Below the pieces are notes generated by a model, which made no database searches, had not been told where the DNA came from, and saw only the letters and a list, made by a program, of their open reading frames with translations. Made by a program: the position numbers and the translations under genes. From positions 1-10,781 of the IMG/VR virus record IMGVR_UViG_2778261567_000015: a stretch of DNA of 10,781 nucleotides; one strand, written 5' to 3'. This DNA is from a virus. Its lineage: Duplodnaviria; Heunggongvirae; Uroviricota; Caudoviricetes. Below, in pieces: positions 1 to 10,781 of the stretch (its first letter is position 1; the number at the start of each line of letters is the position of its first letter).

Positions 1-282
1 TTACCGCCGTAACCGCTCCGGCTTCTTCCAGTGGTACGTTATTTTTTCTTTCTCCCGATACAGTTCAACGCGGCGATTGTAGGCCAGCATTTCCAGAACG
101 CGGATCCGTATGTTGCGCATATCCACATCATTAAGCTGGATACCATCACGGCGCATCACCTCCGCAACAACACGCACATAATTTTCGGCGGTCACGCTGT
201 CCGGCTGCGTGGCCTGTTCGTCAGCCTGCTGGCTGATTCCGGCAACGCGACGGATTAATCGCAGTAGTTCGGCTTCTGTCAT
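1..282 (-). CDS. hypothetical protein (93 aa)
   Basis: Complete ORF: ATG at 280-282 with a GGGGG stretch just upstream on the minus strand, stop at 1-3. No family recognised. Confidence 0.45.
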   Translation of the reverse strand: MTEAELLRLIRRVAGISQQADEQATQPDSVTAENYVRVVAEVMRRDGIQLNDVDMRNIRIRVLEMLAYNRRVELYREKEKITYHWKKPERLRR

Positions 283-314
283 TGTGCCCCCATCGTTCTG
301 ATAGTCTGGTGTCG

Positions 315-530
315 TCGGGTCCTTCCTGGAATTATGGCCCGTTACGGGGCGGCGACCTCGCGGTTTTTATCTGTTTATGAAAATTTTTCTGGAAAAAGCA
401 TGTCGGCACTTCTCGAACATAACTATTTGTTTTTAAATAGATACACAATAAAAAGAAACGACACGGTAATCATCTGAAATGGCGATTTATGACGCTTTCA
501 TGTCGTTTCTCAGTTTTGTTCAATAATTGC
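315..530 (+). other. lambda-type cos site A (cosQ-like, cosN, long cosB-like region)
   Basis: 12-mer GGGCGGCGACCT at 347-358, preceded by CGGGTCCTTCC...GTTACG and followed by CGCGGTTTTTATCTGTTTATGAAAATTTTTCTGG, which closely matches my recollection of the lambda cohesive end and left-end sequence. Further lambda-like blocks follow (CATAACTATTTGTTTTTAAATAGATAC; inverted AGAAACGACA 454-463 / TGTCGTTTCT 501-510, R-site-like). Confidence 0.7.
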
Positions 531-537
531 GCTGCGG

Positions 538-1080
538 TTACTCGCCTTTCTTCTGTAGCAACTTTTCCGGTACGTCTCCGGTAGTTTCCATCAGGTAATC
601 AGCCAGTATCTTCGGGAGGTTGTCGGCAACTGTGGCACTGGCATTACAGGCTTTAGCCACTTCCTTTTTAAGTCCATCCAGCATGGCGGGGGTCATCTGT
701 GGGAATCCCCTTTGCATAGTAAGCGGGAGGCTGTCCATGATTGAAGAAATCTGGTTCGCCAGCTTTGAAAGCGCGTACAGGCAAAAACCTGTATCAATCA
801 CGTCGCCGCGTTCGCGCTCGTTTTTAAGCTCCTGCGCCTCCGCCTGGGCCGTCAGTAATCGGATTCTTACGCGTAAAAGTTCATCATCGTCGATATCGCC
901 TTTGTCGTTTGTAACCTGGTCAATTGCATTGCTTACCCGATTGTCTATCACGCTGGCAACATCGTAAAAAGCCTCGCGGCCTTTACGTTCAACGGGAGTC
1001 ACTCCCCACTTGTCGAACGCTGTCGCACTTACACGGCAGCTTTGCGCCATAGTTTTTTTGTTCATCAGGTGCGATTTCAT
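538..1080 (-). CDS. phage small terminase subunit, lambda Nu1 family (TerS-like)
   Basis: Translation aligns by eye to lambda Nu1 along most of its length (e.g. LLTAQAEAQELKNERERGDVIDTGFCLYALSKLANQISSIMDSLPLTMQRGFP versus Nu1 RLTRAQADAQELKNARDSAEVVETAFCTFVLSRIAGEIASILDGLPLSVQRRFP). Start is ambiguous: GTG 1092, ATG 1080 (GTGGGGA SD upstream) or ATG 1065 (MNKKT, matching Nu1 MEVNKKQ). Confidence 0.8.
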   Translation of the reverse strand: MKSHLMNKKTMAQSCRVSATAFDKWGVTPVERKGREAFYDVASVIDNRVSNAIDQVTNDKGDIDDDELLRVRIRLLTAQAEAQELKNERERGDVIDTGFCLYALSKLANQISSIMDSLPLTMQRGFPQMTPAMLDGLKKEVAKACNASATVADNLPKILADYLMETTGDVPEKLLQKKGE

Positions 1081-1092
1081 CAATATCCCCAC

Positions 1093-1257
1093 TTAGTTAA
1101 GGTTTCAGGTTGGTGTATTGGTTTTATATTTCCCTTTTTATTCATAAAGATAGAGCAAACAACAAAACCACCACCACCACCCTGAAAAAGCTCATAAATA
1201 GCGAAAAACCGCGAGGTCGCCGCCCCGTAACGGGTCCATATGCCGGAAAGGACCCGT
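1093..1257 (-). other. lambda-type cos site B (cosQ-like and cosN conserved, cosB diverged), oriented toward the TerS-like gene
   Basis: Reverse complement of 1201-1257 is a near-identical copy of 315-371 (ACGGGTCCTTTCCGG...GTTACGGGGCGGCGACCTCGCGGTTTTTCGC). cosN 12-mer is the complement of 1214-1225. Lambda-like sequence continues about 25 bp (CGCTATTTATGA), then becomes unique, including an (ACC)5 run at 1167-1182. Confidence 0.7.
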
Positions 1258-1280
1258 AAAAAAAGCCGGATTTCTCCGGC
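1258..1280 (-). terminator. intrinsic terminator (minus strand)
   Basis: Hairpin GCCGGA-TTTC-TCCGGC (1265-1280) followed on the minus strand by a U-run (A-run 1258-1264 on plus). Lies downstream of the decoration-protein gene. Confidence 0.5.
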
Positions 1281-1401
1281 CTGTCTCAGATAGTTTTCAG
1301 TATGCGATCGATGTCGCCGTCATCGCCTGGGTTTCTGCTTTAAATTTACTCGCCAGCGGTAGCGCCATGATGCTTTCATTCGTTGCCATCGTTCCCCCTG
1401 C

Positions 1402-1737
1402 TTATCGCGCCAGCGGCTGAACGGATACGCCAGAACCCGCAAAGGCGGCGCATTTTTTCGCGTCAGTGTCGACGCTCTCAGGCCAGTTTACGGCGGCGAT
1501 ATTAAATATCCCCGTCTTGTAACACTGTGCTGATTTCTGCTTTGACGTGTCCACAGGGTACGAGGTCAGATAAACAGCCTTGCCAGATTCCTGACCATCC
1601 CACGGCTTAAACTCGCCATTGTCCGCCAGCATCAGCGGGGTAAATTCCTGAATGACGCCAGCATCAGCGGCAAAATGTACCAGCGTCGTGGATACCTGCT
1701 GACTGCCTGCAAATAACTCAATGTATGGAGTGTTCAT
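1402..1737 (-). CDS. head decoration protein, lambda gpD-like (111 aa)
   Basis: Same length as gpD and shared blocks TPLMLAD, WDG, and GIFNIAAVNWPES...KKCAAFAGSGVSV versus gpD GTFRYEDVLWPEA...KKRTAFAGTAISIV. GGGGGA SD before the ATG at 1737. Confidence 0.75.
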   Translation of the reverse strand: MNTPYIELFAGSQQVSTTLVHFAADAGVIQEFTPLMLADNGEFKPWDGQESGKAVYLTSYPVDTSKQKSAQCYKTGIFNIAAVNWPESVDTDAKKCAAFAGSGVSVQPLAR

Positions 1738-1748
1738 AGAATCCCCCG

Positions 1749-2804
1749 TTAACCAATTTTGACGGTAACAAATTTGCGAATATCTGCTGGTACCGGCTGC
1801 GGTGCGCTGTGCGTCTGAACGTACTCAATCGCCGGATCGCCGTCTTCAATCCAGTTTTTCGGGTAGTACATGTTTTGCGTTGCACCAGTTCTTACCGCTT
1901 CCTGATCCATAATCGCGCCATAGGCCACCAGCCCTTTATTGTTGGTGTTGCCCAGGACCAGCAAATCAGGCTCAAGGAAATATTTTTCGGTACCGTCGCT
2001 GTCAGTGTATTTGCCGGAATAGACGATAAGGGCCAGATCTCCCAGATAGCCTTTAAAGCTCACCACTTCGCCCAGGTTTTTACAGGCCAGTTCGGCGGCG
2101 GATTCTGAACCACGGGAAAGATCGTACAGCTCACGGAATTTTTTAAAGCTGCGTAACGTGCGCCATACCTCAGCGCCCATAATCATGACGTTGGCGGGGC
2201 AACCTGCCTGATCTGCGTATAGTTCGATGTCATAGATTGGATCGTAAATATCTTTATCATGCTCGGACCATTTTTTACCCTTGGCCTGCTCTATGATGCA
2301 GTTTTCCGGTATTTTCCAGTCGATTTCATAGCGTTCTATGCCTTCGCCCTCAATGATGTTTTTTCCGGTCGTGACCGCATTTACAGCCAGCCATTCAACA
2401 CGCGCTTTAATGGCGTTTATCTGGCGGCGCATGTTGCCAGTAATCAGGCGCATACGGCGGTAGGTAGGGTCGTTAAGCAGTGCCGGATCTTCTCCAGCCA
2501 TGCGCATTATCGTTTTTAATGGATCGATTTCGTGCTTTGGCTTCATGTAGCCTGGTTTAATCGTGCTGGTTTCGTACCCTTTATCGCGCTGAACCTGGCT
2601 ACCCACCACAGGCGAACAAAACGCCGATATAGTGACTTCTTCAATGTCCAGGTTATCAAGCATGATGTTCTGGGTGCTGAATGTCGCCACGTTCGGGAAA
2701 AACAGTGTGGTAAACAGCGGACTGAATTTATATTCCGCAATATCCCCGCGATTCAGGTACGTGAAAAGCTGATTAGTTGTAAGTGCTGTTGCTTTTACTG
2801 TCAT
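1749..2804 (-). CDS. major capsid protein, lambda gpE family (351 aa)
   Basis: Multiple long blocks match lambda gpE from memory: KFSPLFTTLFF/KFDPLFLRLFF, KPGYMKPKHEIDP/TPGYVKPKHEVNP, DPTYRRMRLITGNMR/DPAYRRRRIIMQNMR, WSEHDKDIYDP/WSKRDKSTYDP, FKGYLGDLALIVYSGKY/YKGMYGDVAIVVYSGQY, YPKNWIEDGDPA/YPKNWVTTGDPA. GGGGGTG SD; start overlaps the upstream stop (TAATG). Confidence 0.9.
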   Translation of the reverse strand: MTVKATALTTNQLFTYLNRGDIAEYKFSPLFTTLFFPNVATFSTQNIMLDNLDIEEVTISAFCSPVVGSQVQRDKGYETSTIKPGYMKPKHEIDPLKTIMRMAGEDPALLNDPTYRRMRLITGNMRRQINAIKARVEWLAVNAVTTGKNIIEGEGIERYEIDWKIPENCIIEQAKGKKWSEHDKDIYDPIYDIELYADQAGCPANVMIMGAEVWRTLRSFKKFRELYDLSRGSESAAELACKNLGEVVSFKGYLGDLALIVYSGKYTDSDGTEKYFLEPDLLVLGNTNNKGLVAYGAIMDQEAVRTGATQNMYYPKNWIEDGDPAIEYVQTHSAPQPVPADIRKFVTVKIG

Positions 2805-3010
2805 TATTCACCCCCGTGAACCTGATTCATACCCAGCGCCGCGCGTAAATAGGCGCGTACCTGCCAGCCTGTTGACGGCTCAACCATCGCCAGCGGATCA
2901 AGTCCTGCCGCAATGCCTGCTTTTACGTTCTGCTGGTGGCGTTCCTTGAGCGCCTTCACGATGTCGGGGCTTATGTACACCGAAACACCGCCTTTTTTCT
3001 CTTCAGCCAT
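2804..3010 (-). CDS. hypothetical protein (68 aa), first gene of the morphogenesis operon
   Basis: ATG at 3008-3010 with AGAGGA SD; stop overlaps the capsid ATG (translational coupling). No family recognised. Confidence 0.5.
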   Translation of the reverse strand: MAEEKKGGVSVYISPDIVKALKERHQQNVKAGIAAGLDPLAMVEPSTGWQVRAYLRAALGMNQVHGGE

Positions 3011-3045
3011 AGTAAGAAATTCCTCTTTGACTTAAAAAATCATAA

Positions 3046-3094
3046 CTGGATGTTCATCCAGCTCTGATTATAATCAGGATTGCATTTTGTGCAA
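3046..3094 (-). promoter_or_regulatory. candidate sigma70 promoter of the morphogenesis operon with a perfect palindrome at the start of the leader
   Basis: Minus strand reads TTGCAC (complement of 3089-3094), 16 bp spacer, TATAAT (complement of 3067-3072). Perfect 7-2-7 palindrome CTGGATG-TT-CATCCAG at 3046-3061 sits between promoter and SD. Confidence 0.4.
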
Positions 3095-3174
3095 TGATGT
3101 TGAGTTGTGTTGCAAATTATGAAATGATTATCCCGATCATGTGTGCCAGCGCACCAAAAAACCTCATATGCAAA

Positions 3175-3241
3175 AGCCCGATAAGCCCCCTCTGACCTTA
3201 TCGGGCTTTTTTTGGGTACAAAAAAGCCGGATTTCTCCGGC
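3175..3241. terminator. tandem intrinsic terminators separating replication and morphogenesis modules
   Basis: Hairpin GCCCGATAAG...CTTATCGGGC (3175-3205) followed by a T-run (3206-3212). Second hairpin GCCGGA-TTTC-TCCGGC (3226-3241) with a flanking A-run, acting on the minus strand just after the stop at 3249. Confidence 0.55.
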
Positions 3242-3248
3242 TGTGTGA

Positions 3249-3521
3249 TTAGCTGTCTGGGTAATTACGCCATATTTCATCGCTTACACCATCTATACCC
3301 ATTTCAGCATAAGTGCGATCGACTGCCTTTCTCAGGTCTCCGAAGTTATCCGGCGGCTCCGGTGGCTTCTGTGCCTTCCTGGAACATTCCAGCCGTCGCA
3401 TCGTAACCTGATGCCGTTCCTTGTCTGTCTCCACCAGCTGCATGACTTCACCCCATCGCGCCGCCGCCCTCCGGTAAAATCCTTTCGCCTCGAGTTCCTC
3501 CGCTATGCGGTCATGTACCAT
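3249..3521 (-). CDS. PerC-like small transcriptional regulator (about 90 aa)
   Basis: ATG at 3519-3521 directly after the SSB stop with GGGGTGAGG SD. Motif MVHDRIAEELEAKGFYRRAAARW resembles the PerC family as I recall it. The longer track ORF (to 3641) overlaps SSB and is not favoured. Confidence 0.55.
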   Translation of the reverse strand: MVHDRIAEELEAKGFYRRAAARWGEVMQLVETDKERHQVTMRRLECSRKAQKPPEPPDNFGDLRKAVDRTYAEMGIDGVSDEIWRNYPDS

Positions 3522-3531
3522 CCTCACCCCC

Positions 3532-3942
3532 TCAGAACGGAATACCATCACCGTAAGGGTCATCGCCTCCCGCTGGTGGCTGATTACCCTGTGTGCCTGT
3601 GGTTTTGCGTCTGTTCCCGCCAGGACGTGCCGCGCGGGCACTGATTACGCTGTCTGCGATAACCTGCCAGCCCTGCCGCGTTTCGCCGTTCTGGCCTGTC
3701 CACTGGCTTACCTGCATCGTGCCGGATACGCTGGCAACATCGCCTTTTTGATGTTTAGCCAGGAAATCGGCCTGTTTGCCAAATGCGATGACCGATAACC
3801 ATAACGTCGCCTGTCCGTCCTGTGCCTGGCTGCATGGCAAAGATACCGCCATACGCGCCAGCGTCATCGGTGTGCCCTTGCTGGTCTGTTTTACCTGCGG
3901 GTCGTCCACCAGCCGCCCGTAAGCGGCTATCTGTGCCGTCAT
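3532..3942 (-). CDS. ssb: single-stranded DNA-binding protein (SSB)
   Basis: OB-fold-like N-terminal pattern (YGRLVDDPQV...WLSVIAFGKQADFLAKHQKGDVASVSGTMQVSQWTGQNGE), Gly/Pro/Gln-rich linker and acidic C-terminal tail DDPYGDGIPF, comparable to the DDDIPF tail of bacterial SSB. Confidence 0.8.
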   Translation of the reverse strand: MTAQIAAYGRLVDDPQVKQTSKGTPMTLARMAVSLPCSQAQDGQATLWLSVIAFGKQADFLAKHQKGDVASVSGTMQVSQWTGQNGETRQGWQVIADSVISARAARPGGNRRKTTGTQGNQPPAGGDDPYGDGIPF

Positions 3943-4208
3943 AATTCCACCTCTCCGGTTTTAACGTTGATGGTTGTTACCTGTTCCGCTTCGGCAATCT
4001 CCCGTTCTGTCAGCGTGGCAAAGTTTGCCGCCGCTGTGGTCATGAATGCGCTTATCAGTTCGGGATGTTCCTTCGCGTATCCTTCCCGCGTGTGGCGGTC
4101 TATCGTTCTGATTGCCACCTTTAAGGCGTGCTCTGTCATGTCTAACGCTTTATATTTTGGCGCTGTTCTGTCTCTGCGCATTTTGGTTATCTCCTCACTC
4201 ATGCTCAC
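3939..4208 (-). CDS. hypothetical protein (about 87-89 aa)
   Basis: ORF coupled to the ssb start (overlap). GTG at 4208 or ATG at 4202, with GTGAGG upstream. No family recognised. Confidence 0.45.
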   Translation of the reverse strand: MSMSEEITKMRRDRTAPKYKALDMTEHALKVAIRTIDRHTREGYAKEHPELISAFMTTAAANFATLTEREIAEAEQVTTINVKTGEVEL

Positions 4209-4395
4209 TTTTACGCCTCACTTTTTAAAGCGTCTCGCTTCGTCTCACTTGAGATTTTTGTGTTTTGTATGTGCATGTTTCATAAGTATTTTTTTACTCC
4301 TCACTTTTGAGCATGTATACAGGTGAGAAAGTGAGTAATCGTGTTAATATTTTGTAAAAACCTCACCATTACTCACTTTTGCTACTCACTTTTTA
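4193..4395. repeat. iteron-like array, candidate replication origin
   Basis: At least 7 direct copies of (C)TCACTTTT (e.g. 4203-4213, 4216-4227, 4296-4308, 4371-4380, 4384-4395) plus inverted GTGAG copies (4323-4335) in AT-rich DNA immediately 3' of the replication ATPase gene. Confidence 0.5.
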
Positions 4396-5790
4396 CAGTG
4401 GTCCTACATCATCACCATCAATGTAAATCACGGCGTCTTTTTCCAGTTTGGCTAACCATCGCCGCATATTTTTCACGTCATACCCAAGCCGTTTCATGTC
4501 ATCACGTAACAGCGGGATCGTGCACTTGTCGCCGTTCTGTGTACGTGAACGGATGCACCCCCATAGCGCGGTATGGTTTTCCGTCTTGTTGCCTGCCTCC
4601 TCGATGCGCTCCAGTTCAACGGGAGGGCGCGGCTTATCCACCACCACCAGCGACGTGATTAACTCCCCGTCAGCGTCGGTAAAAAGCTCCACCACCCGCA
4701 AATCATAGGCAGCCTCTTTGAGTTCCTCCGCGTCCTTCATTTTGGTGCATGAGATAACCAGCGCTTCGCTTCCTGCGTCCTCCCTGCGTATCCGGTATTC
4801 AGCATCCAGCGAAGCACGAAATGCACTGGAACCGCGCGCGCCTTTCGTCTCATCCTTGCCGGAATGGTGAACCACCAGCACCGTGGCCCCTGTGCGCCGT
4901 TTCAGTTCGTCACAACCACGGATAAACGCCCCCATATCACGGGAATCATTTTCATCATTGCCACCAAAGCACCGCGCCAGCGTATCCAGAATAATCATGC
5001 GTACAGGTTTACCCGTTTCCCGCTCCACCTGACGGGCAGCGATAACCAGTTCATCAACATCAAGCGGGACAGCCGGAAAGACCGGACGGTTTACCAGATA
5101 CAGATTTTTCACCTGCTCCCCGTGTACAACCTCCCACGCTCTCACGCGACGCGGTACACCAATACCGCCTTCACCAACCACATAGAGAACAGCGCCATGT
5201 GCAACCCTGCGGCCTCCCCACTGGCGGCCCGTGGAAACGTGACACGCCCACGAACCCGCAAGGAATGATTTATAGGAACCGCTTGCCCCGTATATGCTGC
5301 ATAGCGACGATGCCGGAATAATCCCCTTTACCACGTAATCTAATTGCGTGTCGTATCCGGCAGATCCAACGCTCATCGGTAGCGTGGTTTTTCGCTGGTG
5401 GCTCAGGCTTTCCCCGCGTTCCCATGTCTCCCTAAGCCGTGGAAGCTGGTCGCTCCATTCCTCCAGCAATTCGAAATTTTCAGAAAACAGGCGCGCTTCC
5501 TGGACTCCTGCGATTGCCAGTTTCGTGGCGATGGTTAACAACTGCACTTCGTCAATATTTCCGGCACGTATCACTTTCGCCCTGAACCGACCTTTATCAA
5601 CAATCTGCAAGTTATCCAGTTCGCTTAACTGATAACGCCCCAGGTAAACGGGAGGGACTGGATCGCCTGCTTTTTTGGCCTGTGCAATGATGTAGTGCTC
5701 TGCAAATGAGTGAGCATTATCACCCGCAAAAATAACCGCTTCGGTGTGTTTATCTTTCGGTAACAGTTTTACATTCGGTGCCAGTTTCAT
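4393..5790 (-). CDS. replication ATPase / helicase, RepA-DnaB-type RecA fold (465 aa)
   Basis: Walker A-like GASGSYKS, Walker B-like RMIILDT, VLVVHHSGK motif typical of RepA-like helicases; C-terminal basic domain. Start overlaps the upstream ORF stop (ATGA). Confidence 0.8.
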   Translation of the reverse strand: MKLAPNVKLLPKDKHTEAVIFAGDNAHSFAEHYIIAQAKKAGDPVPPVYLGRYQLSELDNLQIVDKGRFRAKVIRAGNIDEVQLLTIATKLAIAGVQEARLFSENFELLEEWSDQLPRLRETWERGESLSHQRKTTLPMSVGSAGYDTQLDYVVKGIIPASSLCSIYGASGSYKSFLAGSWACHVSTGRQWGGRRVAHGAVLYVVGEGGIGVPRRVRAWEVVHGEQVKNLYLVNRPVFPAVPLDVDELVIAARQVERETGKPVRMIILDTLARCFGGNDENDSRDMGAFIRGCDELKRRTGATVLVVHHSGKDETKGARGSSAFRASLDAEYRIRREDAGSEALVISCTKMKDAEELKEAAYDLRVVELFTDADGELITSLVVVDKPRPPVELERIEEAGNKTENHTALWGCIRSRTQNGDKCTIPLLRDDMKRLGYDVKNMRRWLAKLEKDAVIYIDGDDVGPL

Positions 5791-6086
5791 TTTTTACCCC
5801 TGAATCCGTTAATCATGGTTTTCAGCTTCTGGATGTTTGCCCGTGCTCTGGCGTTGCTGGTGGGCACGTTATGCGGCGCGGTCTGTACCAGAGAAAAATC
5901 ACGCCGGAACTGATAAACAGGCATCACGCAATCATATTCGTAACCTTCACGGCGGTAAGTTACGCACCGTCCCGCCACGCCCTTAATCATTACCGTGCCG
6001 CCGTACTGGTCGCGGTAAATATCACCGCGCGTAAATTTAGGGTGAGTGTTGCCACTGGCAGTTAAGCCAGAATATTTAAGTTTCAT
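5787..6086 (-). CDS. hypothetical protein (99 aa), coupled to the replication ATPase
   Basis: Complete ORF; 4-nt overlap with the downstream ATPase start. No family recognised. Confidence 0.5.
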   Translation of the reverse strand: MKLKYSGLTASGNTHPKFTRGDIYRDQYGGTVMIKGVAGRCVTYRREGYEYDCVMPVYQFRRDFSLVQTAPHNVPTSNARARANIQKLKTMINGFRGKK

Positions 6087-6091
6087 TATTT

Positions 6092-6325
6092 TTATTCTCC
6101 GGTGTGCTGTTCTTTATATCTGTCGTGCAATAGATCTATTTCTTGCAGTTCCATTATTACAGGCTCAAGAAGCGTTATTAATGCCGTGGCAATTCTTGAT
6201 TTTTGTTTGTCGCGTTCATTGTCGCCAAGTGTTTCAAGCCATATGCGCAATATTTCCAGCATGTTTTCACTGTGAGAAAGTGCAAGAAATGCGCGGTATA
6301 TTGTTTCGTGGTAAATATCACGCAT
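6092..6325 (-). CDS. hypothetical small acidic protein (77 aa)
   Basis: ORF in a tightly packed co-directional operon; start 2 nt after the upstream stop; Glu/Asp-rich. Confidence 0.5.
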   Translation of the reverse strand: MRDIYHETIYRAFLALSHSENMLEILRIWLETLGDNERDKQKSRIATALITLLEPVIMELQEIDLLHDRYKEQHTGE

Positions 6326-6326
6326 A

Positions 6327-6548
6327 TTAATCCCCGTCCGTCGTTTTTCTTAAAATAACCTCTGTCACGAAATCAGCATAATCGGCGGCGATATTCAGTA
6401 CATCAAGCCCCGTTGATTTATATTCTCTCGTGGAAAGTAAGAAAAAAGCCGCTCTAATAAGTTCTGGCATTGACGAAAGCGCATCAGCCGCATCATCAGG
6501 AACGCCGGAAAATTCCTGTTTCAGGGAATTAAAACGATCATCACGCAT
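6327..6548 (-). CDS. hypothetical small acidic protein (73 aa)
   Basis: Start chosen at ATG 6546-6548 (MRDD...), with GGGGTGGG upstream and just before the upstream gene's stop. The track's longer start at 6596 overlaps the upstream gene. Confidence 0.45.
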   Translation of the reverse strand: MRDDRFNSLKQEFSGVPDDAADALSSMPELIRAAFFLLSTREYKSTGLDVLNIAADYADFVTEVILRKTTDGD

Positions 6549-6762
6549 AACCCACCCCATTTTCACAATCAGCAACAAGAATATTTTTAGCGTCATTCAG
6601 CGACCGCGTGGCGGTGTATCGGATACATTCCAGGGCGAACTGTGTCCGGTCTTTCTGTTCTTCTCCCTGCGCAAGCTCTGCCGTGCATTCAATATCAATA
6701 AGCGCGTGCATCAGCGTAGTGAGTGCGGCGGCGGCTGCGTCCGGTGTGGTTTTATTGCACAT
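6541..6762 (-). CDS. hypothetical small acidic protein (73 aa)
   Basis: Start chosen at ATG 6760-6762 (MCNKTT...), preceded by GGAGGGG SD and overlapping the upstream stop. Confidence 0.45.
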   Translation of the reverse strand: MCNKTTPDAAAAALTTLMHALIDIECTAELAQGEEQKDRTQFALECIRYTATRSLNDAKNILVADCENGVGYA

Positions 6763-6983
6763 GTACCCCTCCGCATTTTTTTTCGTTAGAAATAAGCGTT
6801 CTTCTTTCCTGTTCATCGCTCAGGAATACGCAGACCTCACCGCTAAGGCGTTTAAGTAAGCCGATGATTGCCCCTGATTCGCTGTCGGTCATCATGCCAG
6901 GGTAATCCTCTGCCAGTGCGCAAATAACTTCGATTTGGTGGGCGCGTTCTGCTGCCTGTTGTAGCGTGATTTCCTGGCTCATA
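6752..6983 (-). CDS. hypothetical small acidic protein (76 aa)
   Basis: Start at ATG 6981-6983 overlapping the stop of the Icd-like gene (ATGA); ends at the TAA at 6752-6754. Confidence 0.5.
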
Positions 6984-7146
6984 AGCCTACCCCCTGACGA
7001 ATACGGGCGACAAAAATAAGATGTGCGTGCGGCAGCTGGGCGCGGGCTTCGCGTTCTGTTGCTGCCGTGACGGTAAAGAGTGAGGTTTGTTTTTCCTGGC
7101 ACTGCATAAAGCGCCAGACAAAGTAAGGGCGTGCGGATACAGCCAT
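6979..7146 (-). CDS. Icd-like small protein, paralog 2 (55 aa)
   Basis: ATG at 7144-7146 with AGGAGCC SD. Paralogous to 7433..7630 (FVWRF...TEREAR...FVARIRQG). Family name 'host cell division inhibitor Icd-like' is from memory. The track ORF extending to 7482 is treated as a non-functional extension. Confidence 0.5.
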   Translation of the reverse strand: MAVSARPYFVWRFMQCQEKQTSLFTVTAATEREARAQLPHAHLIFVARIRQGVGL

Positions 7147-7149
7147 GTG

Positions 7150-7432
7150 AAAGGCTCCTGTAGTGAAATTAAGGAGTCTCGCTACTACGCTGCTAAACGG
7201 GGTGGCGAGACGTAACAGGGTTAGCAGACTGGCACTACAGGAACCAGCGAGCGCAAAGGCTCCCCCGTTACGCCCCGCCATAATGCGGGTATGGGTAGGT
7301 TTACGGACACAAAAAAACCGCATATCGGAATGTAAGCGGCTGTCCGCTGTAGTATTCAGGCTGCTAAACCCGGTCGCCATGTGGGCGATGGGTGAAGCAT
7401 ACAGCCCCGTGATAATTTTTTGCAAGCGGTTT
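7150..7432 (-). other. structured spacer between the Icd-like paralogs; candidate riboregulatory leader
   Basis: Open in both strands with no convincing protein. Contains two direct GCTGCTAAAC copies (7189-7198, 7360-7369) and the complementary GGGTTAGCAGAC (7218-7229); inverted CCTGTAGTG/CACTACAGG (7158-7166 / 7233-7241) overlapping the SD of the 7146 gene; weak hairpin plus 7-nt U-run on the minus strand at 7311-7339. Confidence 0.3.
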
Positions 7433-7630
7433 TTACGCATGATGTGACCCCTGACGAATACGGGCGGCAAATACAGCAACACAACCGGACGGGCAACGGT
7501 TACGCGCTTCGCGTTCCGTCCAGGCGGTTACGTGGATTATTTGAGATTCTCCGGCACTCAGTGCCAGAAAACGCCACACAAAGGCCGTTTGTGTGTGTAC
7601 AAGGTGTGGTATATGATTTACAGCAACCAT
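7433..7630 (-). CDS. Icd-like small protein, paralog 1 (65 aa)
   Basis: ATG at 7628-7630 with AGGAGCC SD; motif FVWRFLAL...TAWTEREARNR...FAARIRQG. First gene downstream of the minus-strand promoter at 7732-7761. Confidence 0.55.
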   Translation of the reverse strand: MVAVNHIPHLVHTQTAFVWRFLALSAGESQIIHVTAWTEREARNRCPSGCVAVFAARIRQGSHHA

Positions 7631-7700
7631 AACGGCTCCTAGTTTACGTTGTTGGTTAGAAGCCCCGTATGTGTTCCAGCACTGCGGGGTTTCGTCTTTT
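7585..7700. repeat. copy 1 of a ~115-bp duplicated unit (5' leader plus first codons of the Icd-like gene)
   Basis: Shares with 8330-8447 the blocks CGTTTGTGTGTGTA, CCATAA, TGGTTAGAAGCCC and a GC hairpin followed by a T-run (7663-7700), in the same order and spacing. Confidence 0.6.
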
Positions 7701-7719
7701 CTGTACCTTGCATCAACAA

Positions 7720-7802
7720 GGTGTAAGACACAATGTAAAATAACGGTGTCTTACACGTCAACCCTTCAAAATATTTTTTTTTCGTGTATATTGTCTTACA
7801 CC
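7720..7802. promoter_or_regulatory. divergent promoter pair with inverted-repeat operator
   Basis: Inverted repeat GGTGTAAGACAC (7720-7731) / GGTGTCTTACAC (7745-7756) and a third half-site TGTCTTACACC (7792-7802). Minus-strand promoter TTGACG (complement of 7756-7761) and TACATT (complement of 7732-7737). Plus-strand promoter TTCAAA (7765-7770), 16 bp, TATATT (7787-7792). Confidence 0.45.
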
Positions 7803-7822
7803 AAAAACATGAGGGGTTAAAC

Positions 7823-8002
7823 ATGGCAACGGGTCCAAAGAATGCAAAATCACAATCTGTAACTGCACGTATTGCCCATGAAATTATTGAAGGCATGGAG
7901 AACGTGAAAGAAGAAGGTGAAAGCACGGGGCAGTTTATAAACGCAGCCATGCGCGGCGAAATCAAACGCCGCCAGCGTCGCAAGGCCAAAGAATCAGAAT
8001 AA
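7823..8002 (+). CDS. ribbon-helix-helix (CopG/Arc/MetJ-type) DNA-binding protein (59 aa)
   Basis: ATG at 7823 with GAGGGG SD. Predicted beta-strand QSVTARI followed by two helices (AHEIIEGMENVKEEG, STGQFINAAMRGEI) and a basic tail. The track's GTG start at 7784 lies inside the promoter and is not favoured. Confidence 0.55.
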   Translation: MATGPKNAKSQSVTARIAHEIIEGMENVKEEGESTGQFINAAMRGEIKRRQRRKAKESE

Positions 8003-8059
8003 TCACTATCAGCGCCGTGGTGTGAGGTACTACGGCGCATTGCTTTACAGGGCAGTACC

Positions 8060-8287
8060 ATGACCAACAACACACTATCACCAATACAAGACACGCAAAC
8101 GCAAGATGATGAAATCATCCGGCAAAGGCAGTCAGAAGCCTGCGCCAGACTTGAGGAAGAACTAACCAGAACAAAAATACCACCACCAGCGCCGCGCTTA
8201 GTGCCACCAGAAAAATTTGCCCTTGAAGATTTTGTCGATAAATACCCACGGCGGCTTAAATCCGGCAAAAACCGACCGCCAGGATGA
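8060..8287 (+). CDS. hypothetical protein (75 aa), acidic N-terminus, Pro-rich centre, basic C-terminus
   Basis: ORF downstream of the RHH gene on the same strand. Weak SD (AGGG 12 nt upstream). Followed by hairpin GAAACGGA-TTAT-TCCGTTTC (8308-8327). No family recognised. Confidence 0.4.
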   Translation: MTNNTLSPIQDTQTQDDEIIRQRQSEACARLEEELTRTKIPPPAPRLVPPEKFALEDFVDKYPRRLKSGKNRPPG

Positions 8288-8329
8288 GTGCACAAAACCG
8301 AACTCTGAAACGGATTATTCCGTTTCCGG

Positions 8330-8447
8330 GGCGTTTGTGTGTGTATAAAGAGTAAGCTATGCTCTTTTATAGCCATAATCTTTACCTCAATTAATGGTTT
8401 GGTTAGAAGCCCGTTGGTGTTCATAGCGCCAGCGGGCTTTGCTTTTT
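8330..8447. repeat. copy 2 of the duplicated leader unit, carrying a remnant Icd-like start
   Basis: Same block order as 7585-7700. Minus-strand ATG at 8374-8376 with SD GAGGTA encodes MAIKEHSLLFIHTQT (compare MVAVNHIPHLVHTQTA) and then loses the Icd-like sequence. GC hairpin 8409-8437 plus T-run 8438-8447. Confidence 0.55.
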
Positions 8448-8506
8448 GTGTTGATTGTGTGTAATGTGTCACTACACATAAATACATTACATGAGGTGTA
8501 ATTAAC

Positions 8507-8686
8507 GTGTCAACACACAAAAACGAAAGGCGTGGTAATCCTCCGTTCCAGTTCCGTTTAGATCCTGACTTACGGGAAAAGATGGAAAAGGCACAACAAC
8601 ATGACGGCGATGATTCTCTTGCTGCCTGGATAAAGCGAATAATCCGCAAAGAATTACAGCAACGCGGCATAGAACCCAAAGGGTAA
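8507..8686 (+). CDS. Arc/Mnt-type ribbon-helix-helix repressor (59 aa, GTG start)
   Basis: GTG at 8507 with GAGGTG SD 8 nt upstream; stop TAA at 8684-8686. PPFQFRLDPDLREKMEKAQQ...SLAAWIKRIIRKEL resembles P22 Arc (PQFNLRWPREVLDLVRKVAEE) and Mnt (PHFNFRMPMEVREKLKFRAE). Absent from the ORF track because it is under 60 aa. Confidence 0.55.
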   Translation: MSTHKNERRGNPPFQFRLDPDLREKMEKAQQHDGDDSLAAWIKRIIRKELQQRGIEPKG

Positions 8687-8836
8687 TTACATTGCCCACC
8701 AGCCTGATAGCGGCTATCATTCCCGTGCTTATGTTTGGGATCACATACACATAAGGCGCAGCAGGTTAATTGTTCACAAGGGCGTTCCGGCAACGGGGCG
8801 CTTTTTGTTATGTTCATCGTGTTATGCCTCACACCA

Positions 8837-9043
8837 TTACGCAGCCGTTCCGCGTGCTTCCTGCTCACGTTCTTTCATCCATGCGATTACGTCTTCCTCA
8901 TACCATCCGCGACGGCGTAAACCAACGCGAAAACCCTGCGGAAATTCTCCGGCGTTGATCATGCTTTGAAGCGTGCTGTCTGCCTTGATGTAGATAAGTT
9001 TTTTTACTTCCTGGCGAAAGATGACTTTTTTGATTGCTTCCAT
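8837..9043 (-). CDS. alpA: AlpA-family phage transcriptional regulator (68 aa)
   Basis: ADSTLQSMINAGEFPQGFRVGLRRRGWYEEDVIAWMKERE fits the AlpA/Vis MerR-like HTH pattern (...GxFPKPxKLGxRxxxWxxxEVxxW). Position next to the integrase is typical. Confidence 0.75.
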   Translation of the reverse strand: MEAIKKVIFRQEVKKLIYIKADSTLQSMINAGEFPQGFRVGLRRRGWYEEDVIAWMKEREQEARGTAA

Positions 9044-9060
9044 CGTGATTTACCTTGTGA

Positions 9061-9151
9061 ATCCGGTGTATTCCGGTGACAAATACGGTAAATCATCGGA
9101 TACGGGTAAAAACAGTTCCCACCGTTTTTAAACTGTTAGAACCGTTTTTTA
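9061..9151. promoter_or_regulatory. repeat-rich region upstream of alpA (candidate operator sites)
   Basis: Direct repeats TCCGGTG (9062-9068, 9072-9078), TACGG(G)TAAA (9084-9092, 9101-9110) and ACCGTTTTT (9121-9129, 9141-9149), the last pair forming an inverted arrangement with GGTAAAAAC. Confidence 0.35.
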
Positions 9152-9176
9152 TGTTGGTGATTTGAAAGGGATTTAT

Positions 9177-9198
9177 AAAAAAAGCGGCATTTCTGCCG
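9177..9198 (-). terminator. intrinsic terminator (minus strand)
   Basis: Hairpin GCGGCA-TTTC-TGCCGC (9183-9198) followed on the minus strand by U6 (A-run 9177-9182 on plus), directly after the stop at 9211. Confidence 0.5.
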
Positions 9199-9210
9199 CT
9201 TTGAGGATTG

Positions 9211-9462
9211 TTACCGCCATTTTTTTGGCCTGCCTCCGGTCTTCATGGTTGCCGGACGAACTACCCTGTCGATACTTTCAGCCATATTCCTGGATGCCCC
9301 ACGGGATACCAGGAAATCTACTACCTGTTTTTTTGATGGGGCCGTCGTTCTGTCCTCCGGATCGTAGGTTGACCAAAATTCATGCTGAACCATCAGGGCC
9401 AGTTGCAGCCCGTCGCAATTGCATCTGAAATTTTTTTGCATCTTAACGGTTTCATGTTTCAC
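9211..9462 (-). CDS. hypothetical protein (up to 83 aa), doubtful
   Basis: ORF between int and alpA ending just before a terminator, but GTG start with weak SD and no recognisable family. Confidence 0.3.
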   Translation of the reverse strand: MKHETVKMQKNFRCNCDGLQLALMVQHEFWSTYDPEDRTTAPSKKQVVDFLVSRGASRNMAESIDRVVRPATMKTGGRPKKWR

Positions 9463-9539
9463 GGCCTTGTCGTTAAATTTGATGCAATTATACGACGGTT
9501 TTACATGGTTTTCGTAGTTTTTACTGGTTTTCTGTACAG

Positions 9540-10781
9540 CTAAACGGCTCGGATACCCCTTTTACCACTGGCGAGGGTTACGCCCGTCGCCGCAGCCTCG
9601 ACAAATTCGCCCCACCAGCGCATAAGCACCACGCGTTTTTCTATGTAGTTGCTCCGGTTGTATGCCCGTCTCACTTCGTTAGTGTCGACGTGGGCAAGTG
9701 CGGCCTCGATTACGTCCGGCTCGAATCCTTCCTCGTTCGCTGCTGTACTGAATATGGCGCGTAATCCATGAGACACCAGCACGCCAGCGAACCCCATGCG
9801 TCGTAATGCTGCGTTTGCTGTCTGGCTGTTCATTGGCTGCCGTGGGTCTTTCAGACTCGGGAAAACATAATCGCGGTGGTGGCTGATTGGTTTCATGGCC
9901 TCCAGCACCGCCATAGCCTGACCGGAAAGTGGGATAACGTGATCCCTGCGCATCTTCATGCGTCCGGCGGGTATCGTCCAGCGTTGCGCGTCCAGGTCGA
10001 TTTCATCCTACCGCGTTGATGACGCTTCGGCGGGACGGGTTACGGTCAGTAACTGCCATTCAATCAGTAATCTGGTCTGCCGTTCTGTTGCCGATACTGA
10101 TAAAGCCTGCATAAGCTCCGGCAACTGTTCGGGGCGGATTGTTGGCATATGTTTTTTTACAGGGGAGGGGAACGCCTTACGCACATTCATAGCCGGATTG
10201 GCATCAATCAGCCCACTGTTGGCGGCGTAATCCATTACCTCATTAACGCGCTGTAAAACCCGTTTGAGTGTTTCCAGGTTGCCGCGCTCCTTGATGGGGG
10301 TAAGCACCTCAACGAACCTGCGAGCGGTCAGGGTGTCTATTGGGGTGTTGCCGATGAACGGGAATACATATTTATCCAGCGATCGCCAGATGTCTTTAAT
10401 CGTGTTGGGGGCCAGATTCTGGCTGATTTTCACCTGGTACCATGCCGCCGCCACATTTTCGAACGTGTTCCCTTGTCTTCGGGCCTCTGCCTCTCGTTTT
10501 TTCTTCTCATGGCCCTGCGGGTCAGTTCCGGCACTGATTAACGCTCTGTACTCGCTACGGCGTTTTCTGGCATCAGCCAGGGAAACATCATCAAGCGATC
10601 CAAAACTCAGCAATATTCTTTTTTTGTCCGATGGCCGGTAGTAGGAAAATCGCCAGAGTTTTGATCCGGACGGTTTGACCAGGAGAAAAAGCCCTCCGCC
10701 GTCCTGTAGGGTGTATTCCTTTTCCGCTGGTCTGGCTGCTTTGATCTGCACCGTGGTTAATGGGGGTGTTTTTCTCGCCAT
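9540..10781 (-). pseudogene. int: P4-type tyrosine integrase interrupted by a single in-frame TAG
   Basis: N-terminal ORF 10011-10781 (GGGLFLLVKPSGSKLWRFSYY...) and C-terminal ORF 9540-9959 (HGLRAIF, RRAYNRSNY) are in the same frame, separated only by TAG (complement of 10008-10010). Read-through gives ...SSTR*DEIDLDAQRWTIPAGRMK..., where related integrases usually have Trp, consistent with TGG to TAG. Start codon is at the window edge. Confidence 0.75.

Follow-up and report, generated by a model that had tools for sequence, protein, structure and literature searches.

The stretch of DNA analysed here (the window; 10,781 nt, positions 1 to 10,781 of the IMG/VR virus record IMGVR_UViG_2778261567_000015) carries a gene encoding a small terminase subunit (terS) that is enclosed by two inverted cohesive-end (cos) sites of the lambda type. 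The window covers nearly one entire island of about 11 kb, from the stop codon of the gene hyp93 at position 1 to the start of an integrase gene at position 10781. By gene content and synteny it is a cos-type phage-inducible chromosomal island (PICI), a satellite of E. coli belonging to the EcCIIHE3034/EcCICFT073 family. Genes encoding an integrase, AlpA-like regulators, an AAA_25 primase/replicase, SSB, a lambda E-like capsid protein, a D-like decoration protein and a Nu1-family protein are present, and membership among the PICIs is indicated by the Pfam and PHROG matches of the integrase, primase/replicase, SSB, regulator, capsid and decoration genes. Synteny was observed with both EcCIIHE3034 and EcCICFT073, to which the packaging-end region of the window (1-3098) shows 91-95% identity in the aligned flanks. 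In a collection of 5,426 complete E. coli genomes, region 250-1300 was matched over at least 80% of its length in 487 genomes (best match about 93%); the annotated matches are EcCIIHE3034, located between cspD and clpS, an island of the same type in Nissle 1917, and the island at phoQ in O157:H7 TW14359. The features of the packaging end are listed in Table 1.

Table 1. Features at the packaging end of the island; bp are counted from cosN of the copy concerned.
Feature	Position	Strand	Evidence and remarks
hyp93, 93 aa, PICI-conserved	1..282	-	PHROG 1561, E=4e-57; backbone beside copy A
Left arm: cosQ core, spacer, cosN and cosN-proximal ~30 bp of copy A	316..387	+	Repeat search, lambda alignment
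cosN, copy A (cos2 type)	347..358	+	Exact lambda cohesive end; packaging would go rightwards
Tripartite lambdoid cosB, copy A	388..520	+	Aligned to lambda, PhiR5_1, phage-21-like CFT073 prophage 4 and IHE3034
Exchangeable, invertible cassette: cosB of copy A, terS, cosB of copy B	394..1183	.	Bounded by the two cos cores
R3-like, copy A: AAGCATGTCGGCACTT	396-411	+	Alignment
I1-like AT-rich spacer, copy A	between R3-like and R2-like	+	Alignment
R2-like, inverted, copy A	450-466	+	Alignment
R1-like, copy A: CATGTCGTTTCTCAG	499-513	+	Alignment
terS, 180-aa full-length Nu1-type small terminase	538..1080	-	Pfam Phage_Nu1, E=5e-22; N15-type DNA-binding domain, PhiR5_1-like core
Candidate inverted R2-like element of copy B: AAAACCAATACACCAACC	1108..1125	-	bp 101-118; moderate support
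Putative R3-equivalent of copy B: (GGT)5TTTTGTTGTTTG	1156..1181	-	bp 45-70; resembles N15 R3
Right arm: cosQ core, spacer, cosN and cosN-proximal ~30 bp of copy B	1185..1256	-	Repeat search, lambda alignment
cosN, copy B (cos1 type)	1214..1225	-	Packaging would go leftwards through terS; terS ATG at bp 146
Terminator-like hairpin and T-run	1263..1282	-	Directly upstream of cosQ of copy B; closes the capsid/decoration operon
Lambda D-like decoration gene	1402-1737	-	Pfam HDPD; backbone on the copy B side
Lambda E-like major capsid gene	1749-2804	-	Pfam Phage_cap_E; backbone on the copy B side

Two inverted cos cores around a full-length small terminase gene

The two arms detected by the repeat search are 72 nt long, 82% complementary and 797 nt apart. 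The best inverted-repeat local score within positions 1-2000 was 38, compared with 12.0 ± 1.9 and a maximum of 22 in 200 dinucleotide shuffles, so the arms lie far above chance. The 12-nt cohesive end of lambda, GGGCGGCGACCT, occurs exactly at just two places, one in each arm and on opposite strands, and each is accompanied by a cosQ core, GGGTCCT at 317-323 and its complement at 1249-1255. Both copies can be aligned to the lambda cos junction from the cosQ core through cosN and on into the next ~35 bp, with 82-85% identity to lambda in the cosN-proximal segment (bp 13-45). The marks of a lambda-type cos, namely a 12-nt cosN, a cosQ core ~25-30 bp upstream and a conserved cosN-proximal segment, were observed in both copies, while the complex cosB consisting of R3, an IHF site, inverted R2 and R1 was observed in copy A and not in copy B. 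The inverted lambda-type copies of ~57 bp that an earlier note had read from the window are thereby confirmed, and the alignment to lambdoid cos regions, which it had named as a check, covers cosQ to cosN in both copies and cosB in copy A. Its placement of copy B before the TerS gene, in the manner of lambda cos, was also found to be correct. Among IMG/VR contigs, whose ends were taken as a proxy for virion ends, none ended convincingly at cosN, and no sigma-70-like promoter was found within 1-1800. The hairpin upstream of copy B is kept in CFT073, IHE3034 and a related IMG/VR locus (L013).

The gene between the two sites encodes a small terminase of full length. The open reading frame (ORF) reaches mechanically to a GTG at 1092, and the likely start is the ATG at 1080, as annotated in IHE3034. 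TerS is 33% identical to lambda Nu1 from residue 3 to residue 180, over the entire length, and since the alignment extends to Nu1 residue 180 it includes the region that in Nu1 binds the large terminase subunit (TerL), a role of the Nu1 C-terminal region that is established knowledge (summarised in PMC9026076). The best phage relatives are N15 gp1 (46%) and PhiR5_1 Nu1 (42%), and the similarity is mosaic. Residues 1-52 are 58% identical to N15 gp1, with two shared deletions, and 23-27% identical to the TerS of lambda, 21-type phages and PhiR5_1, and residues 96-135 are 70% identical to PhiR5_1 Nu1 and 45% to N15 gp1. The island protein and N15 gp1 are alike in their N15-type DNA-binding domain and differ in the core, which in the island resembles PhiR5_1 Nu1. 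A scan of species-representative genomes with TerS returned no related loci.

Small proteins of the Rpp type, known from related islands, have 135-154 aa and consist of a TerS-like winged-helix and a dimerisation domain of their own, with no TerL-binding C-terminus. The TerS of the window is not an Rpp, because it has 180 aa, aligns to the end of Nu1 and has no detectable similarity to RppC, so that the feature that defines an Rpp was looked for and not found. A PDB sequence search with TerS gave no match to RppC even at E ≤ 10 and no significant hit to the Nu1 DNA-binding domain, and TerS and RppA are 12% identical in alignment.

Two unlike cosB regions and an optional second site

Copy A can be aligned to lambda further on, through R3, I1, R2 and R1, and contains an R2/R1-like inverted repeat (445-463 / 501-519). 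Its identity over bp 46-175 is 64% to lambda and 69-71% to PhiR5_1, CFT073 prophage 4 (21-like) and an EDL933 prophage, against a background of about 45-50% for unrelated pairs. Copy A ends where Nu1 would start and there abuts the 3' end of terS on the opposite strand; the lambda alignment and this anatomy bear out the long lambda-like cosB without a following terminase gene that had been noticed before. The R3-I1 part is 21-like, with a 44-bp match at 93% to prophage cos sites in roughly 600 E. coli genomes, located in EDL933 ~100 bp upstream of a prophage terS-terL pair. The R2 and R1 elements (TGTCGTTTCT) resemble those of PhiR5_1, which is the best phage match to copy A overall (82% over 150 bp). 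Compared with the cos of lambda, phage 21 and PhiR5_1, copy A shares cosQ, cosN, R3, an I1-like spacer, inverted R2 and R1 at lambda-like spacing, but no terS or terL follows it and its R sites are mixed (R3 21-like, R2/R1 PhiR5_1-like). The complete cosB of copy A was present in 103 of the 5,426 complete genomes and was 98.6% conserved in at least six of these 103.

The cosB of copy B is at background identity against every phage cosB tested. It had been described earlier as unique sequence with an (ACC)5 run, but it is not unique. Read in the orientation of the cos site, the run is (GGT)5TTTTGTTGTTTG at bp 45-70, where R3 lies in lambda and N15. Conservation of the block was observed in islands with a TerS of 82%, 74% and 55% identity to that of the window. 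R3 of N15 is GAGGTTGTTGTTT at bp 48-60 (PMC4669245, PMC9026076), and the corresponding block of one related locus (L019) reads GtGGTTGTTGTTTAA, identical to it at 12 of 13 positions. In L019 and in a metagenomic locus (L012), changes in the candidate inverted element (bp 101-118) accompany those in the R3-like block, which is suggestive of a cosB1 (the cosB of the upstream, cos1-type site) that may consist of R3 and an inverted R2. Copy B is like N15 cos in having a GTT/GGT-rich R3-like block at the R3 position and no lambda-type R1 or I1. It is unlike N15 cos in that its cosN is that of lambda, terS starts at bp 146 and not at bp 89, an inverted R2-like element possibly occurs at bp 101-118, and the equivalent of N15 rR2 is not significant. 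An rR2-like copy inside terS (10/12 inverted match at bp 314, a position homologous to N15 rR2) was considered and set aside as not above chance. Triplet runs were also observed in cos1 of both cassette types, (GGT)5 at bp 45-59 in TerS-type islands (window 1167-1181) and (ACC)3 at bp 55-63 in Rpp-type islands (L004, the EcCICFT073 locus, 2613-2621); these complementary runs lie at the same place, as if a protein-binding block had been inverted between the two cassette types.

A pair of cos sites, named cos1 and cos2, has been described in EcCICFT073 (Fillol-Salom et al. 2018 ISME J, PMC6092414; 2019 Mol Cell, PMC6739421), with lambda-like cosQ and cosN and "completely divergent" cosB regions. 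When cloned, each of the two lets phage mediate plasmid transfer, cos2 to some extent (PMC6092414, PMC6739421). Deletion of cos1, a site needed for transfer, lowers the transfer of the island, deletion of cos2 raises it and deletion of both abolishes it (PMC6092414), and RppA that is bound to phage TerS diverts packaging towards the cos1 cosB (PMC6739421). The reason for two cos sites in some PICIs was explicitly left open in these papers (PMC6092414, PMC6739421). The published Fig. S1A sequences place cos1 upstream of rppA, with an arm that agrees with copy B; the published cos2 was located here downstream of rppA, in inverted orientation, with an arm that matches copy A. The three R repeats of copy A had made it a candidate for the island-specific site, which was rejected because the RppA-responsive cos1 of Fig. 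S1A is the upstream, co-oriented site and because cosB2, the cosB of the downstream site, varies independently of terS.

EcCICFT073 and the window are alike in the backbone of E-like capsid, D-like decoration and hyp93 genes (94-95% nucleotide identity; the decoration/capsid pair is syntenic with c1499/c1500) and in two inverted cosN sites with the same arm sequences around a specificity gene. This gene is the 144-aa rppA in EcCICFT073, whereas the window encodes the 180-aa full-length Nu1/N15-type TerS; the R3 position of cos1 reads ACCACCACC there and (GGT)5TTTTGTTGTTTG here; and the cos2 position of the window, unlike that of EcCICFT073, has a recognisable lambdoid R3-I1-R2-R1. Murialdo and Feiss proposed that the cosB of cos1 is simple and N15-like, its R3 equivalent lying at bp 48-65 (ACCACCACC in Rpp islands), and a term search of their review returned no mention of cos2. 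The arrangement in the window is a member of the two-cos PICI design published in 2018 and 2019 and is not new. It is set apart by the full-length TerS, the recognisably phage-type second cosB and the exchangeable, invertible cassette, and the accessible text and legends of PMC6092414 and PMC6739421 contain no mention of inverted orientation, cassette exchange or inversion.

In the cos2 cosB of EcCICFT073 (L004 3100-3310), three ATGTCCGGTT repeats were observed, direct at bp 51-60 and inverted at bp 108-117 and 138-147, which form an R-site-like architecture; the published passages and legends on EcCICFT073 that were covered make no mention of them. In CFT073, cos1 of the PICI (L004 2559) and the cos of helper prophage 4 (39745) are co-oriented and 37.2 kb apart, near a lambdoid headful. 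PICI lateral transduction was considered as a relevant process and dropped, since cos phages are stated not to perform it.

EcCIIHE3034 is catalogued as a PICI and, in PMC6092414, is stated together with EcCI18098 to encode TerS; EcCIIHE3034 showed weak transfer in the sole published test. Both are of the same island type as the window, with the same terS cassette and both cos sites (~93% across 1-1338), but the window lacks a 414-nt gene between the decoration gene and cos1 and its integrase has an amber codon. No description of the cos sites of these two islands was found in the main text and searchable supplements of PMC6092414. In CFT073, IHE3034, Nissle and TW14359 the missing gene, hyp137, sometimes annotated as a head-tail connector, separates the decoration gene from cos1; it is absent at ~1321-1400 of the window, and two aligned pieces were needed across ~1321-1400 in all eight complete-genome matches listed. 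SaPIbov4 and SaPIbov5 are likewise satellites packaged via a helper-type cos, and two putative cos sites have been reported in SaPIbov4 (PMC6092414), but their host, phage family and cos sequences are unrelated and they have no island TerS.

The survey of the second site covered 73 IMG/VR loci, all with the same cosB1 motif and with terS and hyp93 intact. In 34 loci cos2 is absent and the terS stop lies 10-11 bp from the next gene, and in three it is truncated inside cosN. An untruncated cos2 is present in the other 36 loci, with at least four types of cosB2: type I, that of the window (12 loci), type II with R = CAGATCCkTTCT (14 loci), type III of the phage-21 type (one locus) and type IV with a different cosN and a CACCACCAA block (nine loci). 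Types I, II and III occur with terS 87-100% identical to that of the window, which indicates that the exchange of cosB2 is not tied to terS or cosB1. The O157:H7 islands have type II, which shows an 81% match to a prophage cos located 18 bp before terS-terL in strain p11A. Only the upstream site is found in L013-L015 (TerS 83% identical) and in the Citrobacter-type PICIs L008-L011, which belong to the helper-embedded PICIs (PMC10111431). In L008-L011 TerS is 55-58% identical, the island interrupts the major capsid gene of a lambdoid prophage, and terS is followed by FRG and DUF3892 genes.

In the three loci with truncated cos2 (L024, L067 and L100), cosQ, the spacer and GGGCGGCGG are followed by the terS stop, so that the deletion endpoint lies in the terminase nick region. 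In L012 (TerS 74% identical) the two cosN differ, GGGCGTCAGCGT at 1242-1253 and GGGCGACAGGCG at ~2142-2153, and with unlike 12-nt cosN the two sites might serve helpers with different cohesive ends.

Exchange and inversion of the terS/cosB cassette

Compared with EcCICFT073, the window is 94-95% identical up to position 393 and again from 1184, with no similarity in between, which indicates that the unit of cosB2, gene and cosB1 was replaced exactly at the inner edges of the arms. With a flipped junction built as a query (hyp93, arm A, cosB1 and the terS 5' end), the intact flipped junction was detected in 5 complete genomes, against 495 genomes in which the junction is normal. At least 6 complete genomes have the cassette inverted, their islands lying in three chromosomal contexts, and the orientation is normal in all 73 IMG/VR loci. 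In E. coli 2014C-4587 the whole of 316..1256 is inverted and the flanks are unchanged; in PM4-5 the flipped junction belongs to an island elsewhere on the chromosome, whose terS and capsid genes are on opposite strands; and in ST130 the flipped cassette is degenerate. The arms were read in two of these islands, 2014C-4587 and ST130, where the cosQ/spacer half stays with the flank and the cosB half moves, the switch lying within cccgttacgGGGCGGCGACCTcgc. This 31-nt block is the cosN core and the only long identical block of the arms, and a breakpoint inside it does not separate homologous recombination from terminase cutting with flipped re-ligation.

In Nissle 1917 the cos1 arm (L017 11827-11880) has a cos2-type cosQ spacer, and the hyp93-side arms of IHE3034 and Nissle have the GGACCCG variant of the other arm. 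Such mosaic arms indicate that recombination or gene conversion between the cos sites does occur. The cassette was also compared with invertible segments of the Hin/Gin/Cin type: it has inverted repeats and undergoes natural inversion, but it encodes terS alone and no recombinase.

A swappable segment between the cosN sites and its natural inversion are new here. There is a small chance that the 0.87-kb terS/cosB cassette is operated by the terminase, in that cutting of both cosN would release a fragment with identical 12-nt 5' overhangs that could be rejoined in either orientation or swapped between co-replicating islands. If this is true, the packaging enzyme itself would drive inversions and exchanges with breakpoints in cosN, thereby reshuffling packaging specificity and polarity.

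Predicted roles of the two sites in packaging

The reading favoured here, which on comparison of the sequences is fairly probable, is that a private island cos (copy B, where the island's N15-type TerS would recruit helper TerL) is combined with an optional, exchangeable helper-type cos (copy A, used by helper TerS). Copy B (1156-1257, -; equivalent to the published cos1) would be the initiation site private to the island. The N15-type winged-helix domain of TerS is predicted to bind (GGT)5TTTTGTTGTTTG, 45-70 bp from cosN, and its Nu1-like C-terminal half would recruit the helper large terminase, so that cosN is nicked. From there, packaging would proceed across terS and along the concatemer until the next copy B, at which it would be terminated by cosQ and cosN. 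Copy A (317-520, +; equivalent to the published cos2) would be read by the helper's own TerS in the opposite direction, as an optional module through which an unmodified helper terminase may package the island or be diverted to it; the binding partner of each site and the benefit of copy A are thus predictions. This reading is consistent with the equivalence by position of copy B to the experimentally island-specific cos1 of EcCICFT073 (PMC6739421). The proposal in the earlier note of one helper-type and one island-specific cos is in this way supported indirectly, by the phage likeness of the cosB of copy A, the variation of cosB2, the N15-type TerS and the cos1 position. The selective or bidirectional packaging that the note expected from the pair is not supported, transfer of the sister island having increased, and not decreased, on deletion of its second cos (PMC6092414).

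Several observations weigh against it. For copy B, the R3 assignment comes from motif similarity and position alone, the register of the GGT/GTT block at bp 45-70 is off by several bp relative to N15 R3 at bp 48-60, and the rR2-like inverted copy in terS is not above chance, its score being reached by 75 of 200 shuffles. For copy A, no sequenced phage matches the cosB above 82%. The type II cosB2 matches a median of 1 place per genome, and one place in every O157:H7 genome listed, so that these genomes apparently have no resident prophage of matching cosB. Because the N15-specific terminase packages lambda DNA (PMC4669245), the N15-type TerS of the island might use some lambda-like R sites. 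The published tests of EcCICFT073 demonstrate no benefit of cos2, and the increase of transfer on cos2 deletion implies that the second site is costly under laboratory conditions (PMC6092414). Higher transfer without cos2 fits a conflict of convergent packaging series, in which a cut at the opposed site would break the concatemer being packaged, and such a conflict would also explain the loss of cos2 in about half of the islands. That cos2 has been kept in more than one intact, phage-like version points to a conditional benefit, in helper range or in helper interference.

The same deletion result could mean that the benefit of cos2 lies elsewhere and that copy A is mainly a decoy, which would soak up helper TerS and terminase on the amplified concatemer and, by unhelpful cuts, lower helper yield and not raise island transfer. 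The helper-like cosB of copy A agrees with such a role, and the variety of cosB2 types could follow that of the helpers in an arms race. It is nevertheless unlikely, since about half of the related islands have no second site, cloned cos2 gave phage-mediated plasmid transfer and so can support packaging, and interference in this family is already explained by Rpp and could also be explained by TerS competition. The absence or truncation of cos2 in 37 of the 73 loci and its dispensability in EcCICFT073 would suit a non-functional remnant, a piece of phage cos that recombination brought in and that travels with the terS cassette. That reading is quite improbable, as copy A is complete where present, with cosQ, exact cosN and R3-I1-R2-R1 at lambda-like spacing, and is highly conserved in at least six of the 103 genomes that have it. 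Diverged islands change the R sequence yet retain the architecture, replacement by other intact phage-type cosB variants argues for selection, and the cos2 of CFT073 is active in plasmid transfer.

Both cos sites might also be read by the island TerS, giving truly bidirectional island-specific packaging, with copy A as a complex, Monarch-like cosB recognised by the same N15-type protein. Both cosB regions lie with the gene inside the segment swapped relative to EcCICFT073, an N15-specific terminase can use lambda cosB, and Monarch-type prophages pair an N15-like TerS with a tripartite cosB. However, the cosB2 type changes while terS stays 87-100% identical and cosB2 is often absent, R3 of copy A is 21-like although the N15-specific terminase cannot package phage 21 DNA (PMC4669245), and the R sequences of copy A (TGTCGTTTCT) are unlike the GGT/GTT block of copy B, so that this is the least probable of the alternatives. 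A mainly structural role of the inverted pair, with the cos cores as handles of recombination or cleavage by which the cassette is exchanged or flipped, altering packaging polarity or terS expression, is very unlikely. It is favoured by the position of the cassette boundary relative to EcCICFT073, which coincides with the arms' inner edges, by the inverted cassettes of at least 6 complete genomes (three chromosomal contexts, switch inside cccgttacgGGGCGGCGACCTcgc) and by the mosaic patches of the Nissle and IHE3034 arms; but inversion is rare (5 genomes against 495 normal, and none of the 73 IMG/VR loci), no functional difference is evident between the orientations, and single-cos islands still vary in cassette type.

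Several features were observed outside the packaging end. The integrase gene (9540-10781, -) is broken by an in-frame TAG at 10008-10010 ("...TR*DEIDL..."), after which the same frame resumes with the catalytic part at 9540-9959; it is probably an amber pseudogene, and the island in this copy may lack the ability to excise by itself. A 409-aa ORF (7639-8868, -) occupies the usual accessory-gene position between the integrase and AlpA-like regulator genes and had no match in Pfam, PHROGs or PADLOC. At 6979-7630 (-), two adjacent or overlapping ORFs of 167 aa and 65 aa both match phrog_1743 and phrog_29966 (small transcriptional regulators) and may represent a duplicated or frameshifted regulator.

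The comparison gives a first concrete, testable account of the second cos site, in which the upstream site is constant and would be island-specific, and the inverted downstream site would be an optional module, present in several phage-like versions of cosB, that islands acquire, lose, exchange and flip at cosN. The satellite recognised in this way is of the cos type and has a small terminase of its own, and the presence of a full-length N15-type TerS in the very cassette occupied by Rpp in EcCICFT073 agrees with the idea of an evolutionary origin of Rpp from a TerS. The comparative pattern also raises a small chance of terminase-driven DNA rearrangement. About 9% of complete E. coli genomes have such an island, Nissle 1917 and O157:H7 among them, and at this prevalence their helper choice and packaging bear on gene transfer in pathogens and probiotics.

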